The position numbers were made by a program, and so were the translations under genes. Shown here piece after piece: positions 1 through 51,112 of a stretch of 64,000 nucleotides of DNA. Location: the NCBI RefSeq assembly GCF_055900595.2, contig NZ_CM148325.1. One strand, written 5' to 3'. Positions within the stretch are counted from its first letter, which is position 1. Every line of letters starts with the position of its first letter. The notes beneath the pieces are model-generated. The model searched no databases and was not told where the DNA came from. It saw nothing but the letters and a program-made list of their open reading frames with translations.

Positions 1-966
1 CAGCGCGGCGAGGAGCAGGTTGGTGTAGTAGTAAATTTTGACGGTATCGAAACGTCGCGTTAACGGGCTGACAATCACCGAGCCGATAATGGAGGCGAAG
101 GTGACCATAGTGAAGAACAGCGACGTGTAGCCCGTACTGCCTTGTAAGACGTAGGTAATGAAGTACATATACCCACCGCCGCGAATATTAAAGACGTTAA
201 TCAGCAGGAAAGACATGACCAGCATCAGCAGCAGTTGGTCGTTGTTTCGCAGCCCGGCAAGATGTTCGCGCAGGGTAAATTTCCCCATTGTGGAGAGTGG
301 CACCCGTTCACGAACCCAGAAGAAACAGCACAGGAACATCACCACAGCGATGGCGCACAGCACGCCGACGCCCAGTTGATAGCCGCGCGCGGCATTACCC
401 TGACCGAAGAGATCTACCATCCACGGCAAGCCAACCGAAACCAGAAATCCTGCCACGCCGCAGAGAACGAATCGCCAGGACTGGCAGGAGATCACTTCAT
501 TGTGGCGGGTGGTCATGGTGTTGATCAGCGCGCAGTACGGCACGTTGATGGCGGTATAACCGACTGAAAGGAGCAGGTAAGTGCCGAACGCCCAGGCGAT
601 TTTTACTCCCATGCTGGCATCTGGCACGGTGAACGTCAGGATGCCGATAATGCCGATGGGAATGGCAATCCACAACTGCCACGGACGAAAGCGCCCCCAG
701 CGACTTTGCGTCCGGTCGGCAATGACGCCCATCACCGGGTCGGAGATGGCATCAAACACGCGCAGTGCAATAAACATCGTGCCGACCAGCGCCGGAGTTA
801 AGCCAAAAACGTCGGTGTAGAAAAAGGTGAGAAAGTTCATGATCAGGCAAGTTATTACGGTGCCGCCTGCGTCACCCAGGCCGTAGCCTATTTTTTCCCG
901 TACAGATAACGCATCGTCAATTTTACCTTTAGCGATATCAGCGGTAGTAATCGGTGTAGAGGTCAT
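1..966 (-). CDS. GPH-family (glycoside-pentoside-hexuronide) sugar:cation symporter, N-terminal ~322 aa; gene continues beyond window start
   Basis: Reverse-strand translation from ATG at 966 (GAGGA Shine-Dalgarno upstream) gives [15 protein letters not shown]...[13 protein letters not shown]... and the GPH signature ...[25 protein letters not shown]...; hydrophobic throughout. No stop within window. Family call from motif knowledge. Confidence 0.6.
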
Positions 967-1191
967 AGATATTCCTCGTGAATAGGGAGCAATTTTTAGT
1001 TTTATTGAAATGACATGATTAATTCTGCCGTGAACGGGAATATCAACAAGGCGAGAAAAGAGTAAAAAAAGGTGACGATTCCGACCTGAATTTAAAAGTG
1101 TGAATTGGATCAGGTGAAATTAATGTTTTTGATTAATAATCAAAAGGTAATGTGTTTAATCATTAATGAATAAGCGGGAAATTACATATCA

Positions 1192-2007
1192 ATGCTCGAA
1201 TTATCCATGACGTTACCGATTAAAGTGCAAAATGGTGGATTATTTATTTCCCGTGGCGTAGGGAGGCATCCGGCAAGGCGGCTGGAGTCATGGGAAATTA
1301 TCTTTGTCGAAAAAGGTCGATTAGCGATTCAGGAAGAAGAGCGGATATTTCTGGTCGATGCGGGAGAGAGTTTATTACTCTGGCCGAACCGACAGCATGT
1401 TGGGGTAGAGGATTTTCCCGCCGATCTCAAATTTTACTGGCTGCATTTTGAGGTTAAAGCGCCGGATAGCGACCCGCGCTGGCTCACTCATCTTAGCGTG
1501 CCGCAACAAACGAAGGTTGCCGATCCGCAGGCGCTGGTGGCCCTGTTTCGCCAGTTCTTAAGCGAACAGGAAAAGCATCAACGCACTCCGGCGCTGGAGT
1601 TTATTGTGCTGCTGATTTTGCAGCAACTCACCCGTGACGCGCGTCTTGATGAACAGGCCGATGCCGCAGGTACCACGCTTGCCTGGAAAGCGCAGAAACT
1701 GATCCGCACGCAATATCATCGCCCGCTTTCCACGGCGCTTTTAGCCCGCGAGCTGTACTGCAATGCCGATTATCTTGGGCGCGTCTATCGGCGGGTGTTT
1801 CATCTGACGCTTACAGAAGCAATCCACCGCCAGCGGGTGCGCGAAGCCGAAAAGCTGTTAATTAGCGACGCGCGCTCGCTCACGGAAGTGGCGGCGTTGT
1901 GCGGGTTTAATGACGTTGGCTATTTCCGACAGATTTTTCGCAAACACACCGGATTAACGCCAGCTGCGTGGAAGCGACGTTACAGCAAGGAACATATCAA
2001 TTCGTAG
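1192..2007 (+). CDS. AraC/XylS-family transcriptional regulator, divergent from the symporter
   Basis: 271-aa ORF; C-terminal part has the AraC-type helix-turn-helix pattern (...ARELYCNADYLGRVYRRVFHLTLTEAIHRQRVREAEKLL...GFNDVGYFRQIFRKHTGLTPAAWKRR). Start codon uncertain (1192 or 1207). Confidence 0.6.
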   Translation: MLELSMTLPIKVQNGGLFISRGVGRHPARRLESWEIIFVEKGRLAIQEEERIFLVDAGESLLLWPNRQHVGVEDFPADLKFYWLHFEVKAPDSDPRWLTHLSVPQQTKVADPQALVALFRQFLSEQEKHQRTPALEFIVLLILQQLTRDARLDEQADAAGTTLAWKAQKLIRTQYHRPLSTALLARELYCNADYLGRVYRRVFHLTLTEAIHRQRVREAEKLLISDARSLTEVAALCGFNDVGYFRQIFRKHTGLTPAAWKRRYSKEHINS

Positions 2008-2038: not shown

Positions 2039-2734
2039 TTACTGCCCGTAATAGGCATTGGCCCCATGCTTACGCAGGTAGTGCTTATCCAGCAGTTCGT
2101 TTTGCATGGCAGGGAGCTGTGGTGCAAGCTGGCGCGAGAACAGGCCCATATAGGCGCACTCTTCCAGCACTACGGCATTATGCACGGCATCGGCGGCGTT
2201 TTTTCCCCAGGCGAACGGGCCGTGAGAATGCACCAGTACCGCCGGGATTTGTGCCGGGTTCAACCCACGCTCTTCGAAGGTTTTAATGATCACTTCGCCG
2301 GTCTGGTATTCATACTCGCCGTTGATCTCCTCTACGGTCATCTGTCGCGTGCAGGGGATGGCACCATAGAAATAATCGGCGTGCGTGGTGCCCCAGGCGG
2401 GGAGATCCAGCCCGGCCTGTGACCAGATGGTGGCGTGGCGCGAGTGGGTATGCACAATACCGCCAATTTCTGCATAGCGACGATAAAGCGCCAGATGCGT
2501 TGGCGTATCGGACGAGGGCTTTTTGCTACCTTCCACCACCTTGCCGCTGGCTATCTCAACCACCACCATATCGTCGGCGGTCATCACGTCGTACTCGACG
2601 CCGGAAGGTTTGATTACCATCCATTGCCGCGTCTCGTCTACCGCACTGACATTGCCCCAGGTAAACGTCACCAGATGGTGAGCGGGAAGCGCCAGATTTG
2701 CCGCCAGTACGTCGGCTTTCAGTTGTTCTAACAT
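2039..2734 (-). CDS. sgbE: L-ribulose-5-phosphate 4-epimerase (class II aldolase fold)
   Basis: 231-aa [36 protein letters not shown]...; recognised as SgbE; last gene of the yiaK-S operon. Confidence 0.9.
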
Positions 2735-3588
2735 ATAAATCCGGCCTCCTGCATACGCGCTTCAATCCAGCGCCGCGCCTGAATAATCTCCAGCACCGGC
2801 TCTTTGGCTTTTTCGGTCCACATCTCAATCAGAAATGATCCGCGATAGTTCAGTTCATGCAGCGTTTTGAAGATACCAACGAAATCGACGCAGCCTTCGC
2901 CAAACGGCACGTCGCGGAACTGTCCGGGGCTATGATCGGTCACTGGCTGGGTATCTTTCAGGTGGATGGCGGCGATACGGTCAATGCCCAGTTTCAGTTC
3001 GGCGGGAACATCATTGCCCCACGCGCTAAGGTTGCCGACGTCCGGGTAAACAGTGAACCACGGCGAAGCGAGTATCTCGTCCCATTTTTTCCATTTGCTG
3101 ATGGAGTTCATAAACGCGGTATCCATAATCTCCACCGCCAGCATCACCTGCGCGGCGGCTGCCTGTTCAACCGCCCACGCCAGCCCTTCGGCAAAACGTT
3201 GCTGCGTGCCTTCGTCATGGGCTTCGTAATAGACGTCGTAGCCCGCCAGTTGAATGGTGCGAATACCGAGATCGCGCGCCAGACGAATTGCTTTACTCAT
3301 GATCTCCCGTGCTCGCTGGCGTGCCGCGTCGTCACGGCTACCAAAGGGAAAACGACGATGTGCGGACAGGCACATCGACGGGATCCCAACACCCGTTTCG
3401 ATCATCGCGGCAACCAGCGAAGTCCTTTGTGCGGCGCTCCAGTCAAGGCGCGACAGACGCTCGTCGGTTTCATCCACCGACATTTCGACAAAATCAAAAC
3501 CGCAGCTTTTTGCCAGCACCAGCCGCTCCGGCCAGGAGAGATCTTTCGCCAGCGCTTTTTCATAAATCCCTAACGGATGATTACGCAC
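2728..3588 (-). CDS. sgbU: L-xylulose-5-phosphate 3-epimerase
   Basis: ORF track gives 2728..3621; the GTG at 3588 preceded by GGGGAGG gives the expected 286-aa product starting (M)[25 protein letters not shown]-barrel sugar-phosphate isomerase pattern. Confidence 0.85.
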
Positions 3589-4243
3589 GCGCGCCTCCCC
3601 AGATAGCGTCGATTTGCGCATGGAAGTCGGCAGCTACCTGTGCCGGATTTGCTGCGCCTGCCAGTGCTCGTCCGGCAATAAATGCCTTCACGCGGATATC
3701 TTTAAACAGCGGCAGGTCAGCAGGCGTAATCCCGCCGGTAATGGAAAGCTCAAGGCCGATATCGGAAAGCGCCTTCATGCGTGCCAGATCGGCTTCGCCC
3801 CACTGTTGCCCGCTGGCCTGCGCGTCACGACCACGATGATAAATCGCCTGCCGCACGCCAATACGATGCCAGTCGCGGGCGTCGTCCAGCGTCCAGTTAC
3901 CAAAAAGCTCTATCTGGATTTCACCACCGCAGCGTTGCGCCATAGCGTGGCCTTTTTCCACCGTCGCGAGCGGTGCGGCGCAGATGATGGTCATCCAGTT
4001 AGCGCCTGCGCCAAACGCCTGTTGCGCGAGCGTTTCACCAGCATCGGCGACCTTCCAGTCAGCAACGATGATTTTGTCCGGGCACTGTTCGCGCAAGGCT
4101 TTCACCGCGCCAAGCCCTTCGTTTAAACAGAGAATAGTGCCTGCTTCGACGATATCGACGCTGTCTTTTAACAGCGCAACGTCGCGCTGTGCGGCTTCAA
4201 GTGATGAGTGGTCGAGGGCCAGTTGCAGAAGTGGTCTGCTCAT
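3581..4243 (-). CDS. sgbH: 3-keto-L-gulonate-6-phosphate decarboxylase
   Basis: 220-aa [39 protein letters not shown]...; overlaps sgbU start by 8 bp. Confidence 0.9.
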
Positions 4244-5736
4244 AATGTGTTCTCCTTAACGCGGGCATGAAAGCCCTGTAGTGCGGCAATGAGGTGCTGA
4301 TAGCGTTGGTATTTTTGTTGGTAAAGCTGATGGGCGGTCATATCCGGTAACAGGGTACGCACCGGGTGCTGTTGATCGCGCTGGGCTTCGCTGAAATCGC
4401 GATAAACTCCGGTGCCGACGCGGGCGGCAAGCGCCGCGCCAAAACAGCCCGTTTCTTGCACCTGCGGCAGTTCGATACGCAGTCCGCTAACGTCCGCCAG
4501 CATTTGCATCCAGACATCGGAGTGCGCCGGGCCGCCAGTGACGCGCAGGGTGTGCACATCAGTAAAACGTTCGCGCATCCGGTTGAGGTGGGTCATATGG
4601 CTGAACACCACGCCTTCATAAATGGCCTGCAACAGGTGTGCGCGGGTGTGAATGGCCTGCATCCCGTAGAAACCGCTGGTCATCTCGAGTCCGGCGTTGC
4701 TGCCGTACAGGAACGGCAGGAAAAAGAGATCGCCACCGGCTTTCGGTAAGCTGGCAACAGCCTGGTTGATCTCTGCAAACGAGATTTCTCCCCACTGCGC
4801 GGTAAACCATTCGAGATTGCCGGAAGAGGTAGGGCTGGCTTCGTGAACGATAAATTCACCGTCGTTAACGTAGCGGCCATAGACATACGGATGCGCTTCA
4901 CCGCCACCTAAACCGCTGGTTATGCCGCTGGTCACCGCCCAGGTCCCCATCACCGCATTGAGGGTAAATTCGTCTTCGATTCCGGCGCAGAGTGCGGTAG
5001 AAACCACATCAAACAGGCCGCCGACAACGGGCGTACCCGCTTTCAGACCGGTCAGTGCGGCTGTCTGAGCGGTGATTTCCCCGCAGATTTCGGCAGATCC
5101 AACAACAGGCGGCAGGGCGTGATTGATTTCACTGATCCCCAGCCAGTCGGTGAGGCACGGGTCATATTCCCCGCGACTCATGTTGTAGAGATTGGATTCG
5201 GAAATATTGCTCTCTTCGCAGCCTTTGACACCGGTTAAACACCAGCGCAGGTAGTCGTGCGTCATCATCACGCAGCCAATTTGCGCGTAGCGTTCTGGTT
5301 CGTGCTCTTTCAGCCAGCGTAACAGCGACACCGGATGCCCGGTCCACAAGGTTTGTCGGGTCAGCGGGTAGAGTTTTTCCGGGATGCCATCTTCCTGCCA
5401 GCGACGAACGATTTCCATCGCCCGGCGGTCCGAGGACAAAATAGCATTCCCGAGCGGCTTGTCGTTTTTATCCAGCAAAAACAAGCCCTTTCCCTGTGCG
5501 GAGATACCGATACCGACAATTTGTTCCCCGCTAACACCAGAATGAGTAAGCAGGGCGCGAATGACAGCCATGCAGCATTGCCACAGTTCTGCCATATCGC
5601 GCTCTGCCCAGCCTGGCTGCGGGCTTAATGCGCACAGCGGCAGGCGCTGCACGCCTGCCTCCCGTCCTTCGCGGTCATACAGCCCGGCTTTCAGCCAGCT
5701 ACCGCCACAATCTAACCCCAGCCAGTATTGCGTCAT
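4240..5736 (-). CDS. lyxK: L-xylulose / 3-keto-L-gulonate kinase (FGGY family)
   Basis: 498-aa ORF MTQYWLGLDCGGSWLKAGLYD...; FGGY sugar-kinase N-terminus; 4-bp overlap with sgbH. Confidence 0.9.
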   Translation of the reverse strand: MTQYWLGLDCGGSWLKAGLYDREGREAGVQRLPLCALSPQPGWAERDMAELWQCCMAVIRALLTHSGVSGEQIVGIGISAQGKGLFLLDKNDKPLGNAILSSDRRAMEIVRRWQEDGIPEKLYPLTRQTLWTGHPVSLLRWLKEHEPERYAQIGCVMMTHDYLRWCLTGVKGCEESNISESNLYNMSRGEYDPCLTDWLGISEINHALPPVVGSAEICGEITAQTAALTGLKAGTPVVGGLFDVVSTALCAGIEDEFTLNAVMGTWAVTSGITSGLGGGEAHPYVYGRYVNDGEFIVHEASPTSSGNLEWFTAQWGEISFAEINQAVASLPKAGGDLFFLPFLYGSNAGLEMTSGFYGMQAIHTRAHLLQAIYEGVVFSHMTHLNRMRERFTDVHTLRVTGGPAHSDVWMQMLADVSGLRIELPQVQETGCFGAALAARVGTGVYRDFSEAQRDQQHPVRTLLPDMTAHQLYQQKYQRYQHLIAALQGFHARVKENTL

Positions 5737-11759: not shown

Positions 11760-11858
11760 GCCGGATGCGGCTTAAACGCCTTATCCGGCCTACAAATTAT
11801 TCCAAATTCAATATATTGCAGAAATGATGTAGGCCTGATAAGCGTAGCGCATCAGGCA
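11760..11858. repeat. REP (BIME-like) palindromic elements between convergent ysaA and avtA
   Basis: GCCGGATGCGGCTTAAACGCCTTATCCGGCCTAC and GTAGGCCTGATAAGCGTAGCGCATCAGGC: the classic E. coli REP consensus. Confidence 0.8.
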
Positions 11859-30448: not shown

Positions 30449-30609
30449 CGCTAAATAATAGAGCAACCTTTAATAATCTTCTGCTGAATAAAGATTGTCT
30501 CATATATTAATTTTATGAGATTTTTTTAGGATTATATCAAGGAGAAGAAACGAACTTATTAAACTAGAATAGCTGCGGGTGCTTGAGACTGTTTGTCTCA
30601 GGTATTCAC

Positions 30610-30690
30610 CGAAAGGCAGACAGAGAAAAGCCCCACCTGACTATAAATCAAAGTGAGGCTACCCTATGCCTGAACACCATAAGGTTAGCC
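30610..30690 (-). ncRNA. sokA: putative Sok-type antisense RNA of the hokA locus (approximate position)
   Basis: Inference from hok/sok locus architecture (antisense RNA overlapping the mok translation start region); no promoter or terminator individually verified. Confidence 0.3.
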
Positions 30691-30878
30691 TCTTACTCGT
30701 TGGAAATCAACACAGGAGGCTGGGAATGCCGCAGAAATATAGATTACTTTCTTTAATAGTGATTTGTTGCACGCTTTTATTTTTCACCTGGATGATAAGA
30801 GATTCACTGTGTGAATTGCATATTAAACAGGGGAGTTATGAGCTGGCGGCATTTTTAGCCTGCAATTTGAAAGAGTAA
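30666..30878 (+). CDS. mokA: Mok-type reading frame overlapping and in-frame with hokA (translational coupling ORF)
   Basis: 70-codon ORF starting MPEHHKVSLLLVGNQHRRLG then continuing into Hok; architecture matches known chromosomal hok/mok loci. Confidence 0.5.
   Translation: MPEHHKVSLLLVGNQHRRLGMPQKYRLLSLIVICCTLLFFTWMIRDSLCELHIKQGSYELAAFLACNLKE
30726..30878 (+). CDS. hokA: Hok-family type I toxin (50 aa membrane peptide)
   Basis: MPQKYRLLSLIVICCTLLFFTWMIRDSLCELHIKQGSYELAAFLACNLKE; AGGAGG 6 nt upstream of ATG; terminator hairpin GGCGGGAAGTTATTCCCGCC follows. Confidence 0.85.
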   Translation: MPQKYRLLSLIVICCTLLFFTWMIRDSLCELHIKQGSYELAAFLACNLKE

Positions 30879-31065
30879 GAGTCTTCGGCGGGAAGTTATT
30901 CCCGCCTTTCTTACGGCGTTGCGCATTCTCATTGCACCCAAATTTATTTTTCACAAAAATAATAATAGATTTTATTACGCGATCGATTATTTATTTCCTG
31001 AAAAACAAATAAAAAAATCCCCGCCAAATGGCAGGGATCTTAGATTCTGTGCTTTTAAGCAGAGA

Positions 31066-31278
31066 TTACAGGCTGGTTACGTTACCAGCTGCCGGGCCTT
31101 TAGCGCCGCTTTCGATGGTGAAGGACACTTTCTGACCTTCGTCCAGAGATTTGTAACCATCGTTCTGGATAGCAGAGAAGTGTACGAACACGTCTTTAGA
31201 GCCATCGTCAGGAGTGATGAAGCCGAAGCCTTTGTCAGCGTTGAACCATTTTACGATACCAGTCATTTTACCGGACAT
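31066..31278 (-). CDS. cspA: major cold-shock protein CspA
   Basis: [70 protein letters not shown] (70 aa, RNP1/RNP2 motifs). Confidence 0.98.
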
Positions 31279-31500
31279 AGTGTATTACCTTTAATAATTA
31301 AGTGTGCCTTTCGGCGATATGGCGTGCTTTACAGATTTTGAAGCGTTAAAGGAATGTGCACTACGAGGGGTATCAACGATAACTCTTGAAGGGACTTGCC
31401 TTACTACACTGCTTTAATGGTCTGTACGTCAAACCGTTGATGTGCATTAAGCCACGCATTGGCGGGTGATGCAACAATTATTTTTCATATTTATGATTAA
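31279..31500 (-). promoter_or_regulatory. cspA long 5' UTR (cold-box leader, about 160 nt) and promoter with AT-rich upstream element
   Basis: Reverse complement of 31279..31438 reads as the known cspA leader ...ACGGTTTGACGTACAGACCATTAAAGCAGTGTAGTAAGGCAAGTCCCTTCAAGAG...; TTGCAT / CTTAAT-like promoter hexamers upstream. Confidence 0.7.
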
Positions 31501-42633: not shown

Positions 42634-42710
<77 letters not shown>

Positions 42711-42719
42711 ATTTAGAAA

Positions 42720-42745
42720 AACCAGCCTACGGGCTGGTTTTTTGC
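42720..42745 (+). terminator. proK terminator
   Basis: CCAGCCTACGGGCTGG followed by TTTTTTGC, 10 nt after the tRNA 3' end. Confidence 0.8.
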
Positions 42746-42759
42746 TTTCTGCGACCTGA

Positions 42760-42885
42760 AGAGGATAAGAACCTCCGGGGGCAGAGAGGTTCGACTCGAG
42801 CAAAGCGAGAGAACGTTGCGTCAGCAACGGCCCGCAGGGCGAGCCACGCAGTGGCGAGTAATCCTCTGGCACCGACCAAATCTGA
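42760..42885. other. Degenerate tRNA-like segment ending in a near-copy of the proK 3' end
   Basis: AATCCTCTGGCACCGACCAA (42860..42880) versus proK 3' end AATCCTCTATCACCGACCAA; upstream GAGGTTCGACTC resembles a T-arm. Confidence 0.4.
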
Positions 42886-42889
42886 ACGT

Positions 42890-42970
42890 AGGCCTGATAA
42901 GACGCGTCAGCGCCGCATCAGGCAACGGCACCGCACTTATTGTCGGATGCGGCGTGAACGCCTTATCTGA
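42890..42970. repeat. REP/BIME palindromic elements
   Basis: GCCTGATAAGACGCGTCAGCGCCGCATCAGGC and GTCGGATGCGGCGTGAACGCCTTATCTGACC. Confidence 0.8.
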
Positions 42971-43339
42971 CCGACACACCACATATTTCCCTGCCAAATT
43001 TGCGCCCCACATCTCACTATCCATTAACGGATTTGTGACAGAATCCATTGTCTTTTTTTATATTTGCTTAAATCTTTTTTTGCGTTACTTATGGCTGGCG
43101 CTGGCATTTTCCGCTGTGCGTTTTAGCGTTCATGGTATTAATCGCTCAGATATCCATCTTTTCCTCAGATTTTTTTCATTAAATGCATAAAACTTAATCA
43201 CCAAATGTTGCTAAATATTAAGCTGATTGTTCTGGTTATGTTGGCGTAGCACAAATTTCTCTGCTGCAAATAGCTGTTTGAAGTTTTTTTAATCTTTGTT
43301 TGTGGATTCTCACCGTTGGTGTAAATCCCGGTTGGCTGT

Positions 43340-51039: not shown

Positions 51040-51112
51040 GGAGAGAGAAAACCCCCGCACGTTGCAGATATTCACCTGACAACATCACGGGGGCTAATCT
51101 TGAACCTAGACC
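51040..51112 (-). ncRNA. rdlD: putative Rdl antisense RNA, copy 1 (approximate ends)
   Basis: Minus-strand GC stem (CCCCCG...CGGGGG) followed by UUUUCUCUCU, opposite the ldr leader; inferred from LDR locus organisation. Confidence 0.35.

Follow-up and report, generated by a model that had tools for sequence, protein, structure and literature searches.

Among described proteins, SgbU is closely related to UlaE (SgaU) of E. coli, the L-xylulose-5-phosphate 3-epimerase represented by PDB entries 3CQH, 3CQI, 3CQJ and 3CQK. UlaE is a paralogue that aligns with SgbU over the entire length (361 bits, E = 3.5e-107), and the two proteins share the positions of the metal ligands as well as a xylose-isomerase-like TIM barrel. 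They differ in setting, UlaE belonging to the ula operon and to PTS-dependent ascorbate use, and in a 6-residue gap in the alignment near residue 226. In Escherichia coli K-12, SgbU (YiaR, b3582, WP_001350555.1, 286 aa) is encoded within the gene order lyxK-sgbH-sgbU-sgbE, the same operon position as in the window, by which we mean the whole 64,000-nucleotide stretch of DNA analysed here. A GTG start for the gene is already known, in that both RefSeq and the K-12 reference annotation use it. Under standard conditions, PlaR/YiaJ keeps the operon repressed (PMC6958661). Plausibly because of this repression under laboratory conditions, the literature on sgbU, sgbH, sgbE and UlaE yielded no N-terminal sequencing, N-terminomics or initiation-site ribosome profiling.

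Within the window, lyxK (L-xylulokinase, 4240..5736), sgbH (3581..4243), sgbU and sgbE (L-ribulose-5-phosphate 4-epimerase, 231 aa, 2039..2734) all lie on the minus strand and, closely packed, make up the distal portion of the yiaKLMNO-lyxK-sgbHUE operon. The translated sgbU frame matches the NCBIfam equivalog TIGR00542 (L-ribulose-5-phosphate 3-epimerase) with 518.2 bits against a cutoff of 272.15, over profile positions 1-279 of 279, and NF009689 with 504.6 bits against a cutoff of 200, over positions 2-285 of 286. The xylose isomerase-like TIM barrel family, PF01261 (194.4 bits, cutoff 31.1), covers residues 36-288 of the longest open reading frame. Glu, Asp, His and Glu residues, found in AVEIM, YPDVG, HLKDT and LIEMW, align with their counterparts in the UlaE chain 3cqh_A; we take these E/D/H/E positions (AxEIM, YPDxG, HxKDT and LIEMW) to be the four metal ligands described with the UlaE structure. 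By homology, the sgbU product is assigned as an L-ribulose-5-phosphate / L-xylulose-5-phosphate 3-epimerase. Context identifies it as SgbU rather than UlaE, with the order yiaJ / yiaKLMNO-lyxK-sgbH-sgbU-sgbE equal to that of annotated E. coli records and RefSeq using the name sgbU. In the same operon, PGAP names sgbH 'ulaD', the coding sequence homologous to sgbE 'araD' and the middle gene sgbU, a spill-over of paralogue names.

The initial annotation had proposed that sgbU begins at a GTG rather than at the ATG of its longest open reading frame, and the features to which it pointed are present at the junction with sgbH. According to the ORF listing and its translation, the longest sgbU frame spans 2728..3621 on the minus strand, begins with ATG and encodes 297 aa, as had been described. 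The GTG at 3588-3586 (minus strand) gives the expected 286-aa product, its next codons being CGT AAT CAT CCG TTA GGG (R N H P L G). Ahead of it stands the sequence GGGGAGG, at 3600-3594 (minus strand) and inside the Trp-Gly-Gly codons of the SgbH C terminus, with a 5-nt spacer, CGCGC, separating GGAGG (3598-3594) from the GTG. The 11 extra codons of the longest frame (33 nt, 3621-3589, minus strand) fall, as the initial annotation also stated, entirely within sgbH, in another frame, and the upstream ATG at 3621-3619 (minus strand) is built from the sgbH codons caT GCg (His-Ala). SgbH itself is 220 aa long and ends in I-W-G-G-A-R-A-stop. Counted from the first base of the sgbU GTG, the sgbH TAA codon (3583-3581) lies just 5-7 nt downstream, and the two genes overlap by 8 nt.

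Taken together, the boundary of profile homology, the N termini of homologues, the DNA of other genera, the energy of Shine-Dalgarno pairing and the RefSeq annotation all favour the GTG as the likelier start. Judged from sequence comparison, sgbU is very probably translated from GTG 3588 as a 286-aa epimerase whose initiation is directed by the Shine-Dalgarno element. The best-supported coding sequence is 2728..3588 (minus strand; 286 codons plus stop), which carries the TIGR00542 match and corresponds to the homologous 861-nt coding sequence of RefSeq.

GTG 3588 coincides with the boundary of family homology. TIGR00542 positions 1-279 correspond to residues 13-297 of the longest frame, and NF009689 positions 2-285 correspond to residues 13-296; since position 2 of NF009689 lies on residue 13, position 1 of the profile falls on residue 12, which is the GTG codon. 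UlaE aligns from residue 14. Its native N terminus, counted after removal of the 11-residue tag present in the crystallised chain, has an ATG start and is only two residues longer than that of the short SgbU. No part of the 11-codon extension was matched by the family profiles or by UlaE.

We examined the N termini of the 120 best database homologues, of which 117 contained the GIYEKA motif and were counted. The N terminus M-R-x-H-P-L-G-I-Y-E-K, that of the short form, was found in 103 of these 117, most of which are automated calls and not independent evidence, and a consistent 11-residue extension was not seen. Among homologues called long, namely 293-aa JGI calls reading MTFGDLD-M-RQHPLG and two 504-aa fusions, an internal Met occurs at the position equivalent to the GTG, which means that the codon there is a genuine ATG in those lineages. 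Because the homologue N termini are mostly automated calls, the DNA of orthologous loci was compared as well, which addresses the difficulty for eight genera.

This comparison covered the junction at 13 loci, five from Escherichia and the others from Enterobacter, Kluyvera, Mangrovibacter, Hafnia, Budvicia, Serratia, Erwinia and Yersinia. The homologous start codon is GTG in all five Escherichia loci and ATG in seven of the eight other genera; in Hafnia, the sgbU start lies four codons further upstream, leaving ATG or GTG at the homologous codon in 12 of the 13 loci. The ATG at −11 codons is unconserved outside Escherichia, and four genera lack any upstream in-frame start. In Kluyvera and Budvicia, an in-frame stop eight codons upstream of the homologous start leaves no room for an extension of 11 codons. 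At every one of the 13 loci, sgbH terminates close by, its stop codon ending −2 to +8 nt from the start of sgbU. Over the 20 nt that precede this start, all 13 also show Shine-Dalgarno-like pairing with the anti-Shine-Dalgarno sequence (−5.5 to −12.6 kcal/mol), a conservation that could partly reflect the conserved Ile-Trp-Gly of SgbH, since the element sits in sgbH coding sequence. The SgbH tail after Ile-Trp varies by locus (GGARA, GGKRA, GE, GGQ, RSK, GERA, GARK, RS, GQ and GK), yet the nucleotides stay purine-rich, which argues for selection on ribosome-binding function and not on the SgbH sequence alone.

Escherichia departs from the other genera at this junction in two linked ways. The ancestral stop, which the other genera have right beside the sgbU start, has been lost, with the result that SgbH is about three residues longer (..GGARA) and the 8-nt overlap arises. 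In addition, sgbU starts with GTG, as against the ATG of other genera, which we take as ancestral.

The strength of candidate ribosome-binding sites was estimated by pairing the 20 nt upstream of each start with the 3′ end of 16S rRNA, against a background of 6,055 ATG, GTG and TTG triplets on both strands of the window (mean −2.35, sd 2.36 kcal/mol). The GTG at 3588 scored −11.3 kcal/mol, placing it in the best 0.07% of these start-like triplets. For the ATG at 3621, the value was −3.8 kcal/mol, equalled or beaten by 24% of them, and this codon does not appear credible as an initiation site. The bare pattern GGAGG-N5-RTG is unenriched in the window (4 found against 3.0 expected), so the motif alone proves nothing and the argument stands on pairing strength and position. 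Folding of the junction RNA (MFE −27.1 kcal/mol, z = 0.09) revealed no unusual structure of a kind that could impose coupling or hide a start codon.

Each of the five Escherichia sequences compared nevertheless has the upstream ATG and its open frame, with GTG in place of the ancestral ATG as its sgbU start codon, and ATG is intrinsically the stronger start codon of the two. The sequence itself poses no bar to occasional initiation at the upstream ATG, and we assign a slim chance to the use of both starts, with GTG 3588 yielding the main 286-aa enzyme and ATG 3621 a minor, Escherichia-specific isoform of 297 aa with an 11-residue N-terminal tail. Against such an isoform, the ATG has no Shine-Dalgarno element before it and lies in the middle of sgbH, which is itself translated; the extension is also absent in other genera. 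The conservation of the ATG is fully accounted for by the His-Ala codons of sgbH. As these codons fix the ATG, alignment within E. coli is by itself uninformative about it, and other genera were therefore included.

The peptide that the extension would encode likewise shows no sign of purifying selection. Over the 12 residues given by the 11 extra codons and the GTG codon, the Escherichia sequences contain five variants, including ...GEVRV, ...GEAHV, MRKSTPSGEASV and MRKLTQSGEVLV. Substitutions include L>P, R>S, R>H and S>L, whereas the 20 residues that follow are near-invariant. A C>T change in K-12 and a G>A change in Z0117EC0005 are each synonymous in the sgbH frame and non-synonymous in the extension frame. 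On this pattern, the constrained frame across the extension is that of sgbH, and the extension (3589..3621, minus strand) is best described as an open frame outside sgbU, variable in Escherichia and unconserved elsewhere.

Fusion proteins of SgbH and SgbU, 504 aa in length, are on record (P0005, P0015, P0125 and P0133). In P0125, the sgbH frame (HAQI) switches into the extension frame of sgbU (ELSGEARV). With the extension frame open, a single-base insertion or deletion late in sgbH joins the two genes into one, and the recorded fusions may be either real frameshifts or assembly errors.

Slimmer still is the chance that SgbU is a 297-aa protein translated from ATG 3621 alone. This reading would follow the longest open reading frame, and it has deposited records on its side: the exact 297-aa product of the window is WP_274619626.1, further 297-aa versions stand under WP_ accessions, and the original GenBank call for CFT073, AAN82841.1, is 297 aa long. 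It is contradicted by the homology, conservation and Shine-Dalgarno evidence, and for the same CFT073 DNA RefSeq now gives the GTG start and a protein of 286 aa. The long records reflect the behaviour of gene callers rather than evidence, bearing out the earlier warning that automated calling may mis-set this start. RefSeq gives the 861-nt, GTG-initiated sgbU in all four E. coli genomes sampled (K-12, CFT073, AR_0104 and Z0117EC0005), and records for 301 contigs contain the 286-aa protein exactly as the window encodes it. The choice is a matter of annotation hygiene and changes no biology, the same DNA having been deposited both as a 286-aa and as a 297-aa protein. The long form would carry 11 spurious residues into pan-genome clustering, expression constructs and proteomics search databases.

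Starts further downstream, at the in-frame GTG 3519 (+23 codons) or ATG 3483 (+35 codons), are the only other nearby in-frame candidates, and GTG 3519 has weak Shine-Dalgarno-like pairing (−6.2 kcal/mol), but both were rejected as having a negligible chance, for they would remove the most conserved N-terminal segment, PLGIYEKAL..., which is covered by the profiles and the UlaE structure and is invariant among homologues.

K-12 shares with the window the GTG start of sgbU, the GGGGAGG element, the 8-nt overlap with sgbH and the upstream in-frame ATG, at 93.9% DNA identity over the 1.7-kb region. The two SgbU proteins differ at residue 5, which is Gln in K-12 and Pro in the window. Unlike the window, which has GCG at the equivalent place (3592-3594), K-12 carries a further in-frame GTG two codons before the annotated start (GGAGGTGCGCGTG). 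This codon abuts the Shine-Dalgarno element with no spacer; it is unlikely to function, but it sets another trap for start-site callers.

Window positions 2600-4300 are about 94% identical to most E. coli genomes: of 4,856 records with a match, 4,828 show between 90% and 95% identity. A single canine isolate reaches 98.2%. Because of the identity of about 94% to most E. coli genomes, the window would represent either a divergent Escherichia lineage or a divergent allele of the operon. Downstream of sgbE lies an intact gene for a 271-aa helix-turn-helix (AraC-like) regulator (1192-2007, plus strand). The closest relative, NZ_CP098223, has an MFS transporter after the AraC-like regulator (compare window positions 1-1100), and Enterobacter and Kluyvera carry a similar regulator downstream of sgbE. 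In K-12, only a 102-nt pseudogene remnant of the AraC family remains before yiaT. Given this remnant and the intact regulator of the window, we infer that K-12 carries a deletion downstream of sgbE; the arrangement in the window is fuller and probably ancestral.

Elsewhere in the window, the rdlD antitoxin RNA (Rfam RF01813) occurs in five tandem copies between 50951 and 53284, with 80-90 bits each and matches at 51046, 51529, 52013, 52496 and 52979 on the minus strand. The array has a 483-bp unit, 4.8 repeats and 94% identity between them, and constitutes an expanded ldr/rdl type I toxin-antitoxin array. K-12 presumably has a single ldrD/rdlD copy at that locus. Further Rfam matches comprise a cspA thermoregulator (31011-31438, minus strand), a sok-like antitoxin (30577-30728, plus strand), a tRNA followed by RtT (42634-42878, plus strand), naRNA4 (42891-42972, minus strand) and ES036 at 11794 and 45208.

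Returning to initiation at GTG 3588, the arrangement of the junction suggests how it could be achieved. The GGGGAGG element, embedded in the last codons of sgbH, would direct ribosomes to the GTG 5 nt downstream, and we infer that they initiate there. Ribosomes that finish sgbH at the nearby TAA would be positioned to start sgbU, and such translational coupling, which the geometry of the overlap suits, probably contributes to sgbU initiation. On this account, the upstream ATG would be a by-product of reading conserved sgbH codons (His-Ala) in a different frame, and it would be by accident that the frame stays open from there to the GTG. The neighbouring junctions are equally tight: lyxK overlaps the start of sgbH by 4 nt (ATGA), and the end of sgbU overlaps sgbE by 7 nt. 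The sgbH-sgbU pair thereby resembles the overlapping, translationally coupled gene pairs of other bacterial operons, in which the Shine-Dalgarno element also lies within the upstream gene and the stop codon is adjacent; at this locus, the resemblance is one of sequence geometry.
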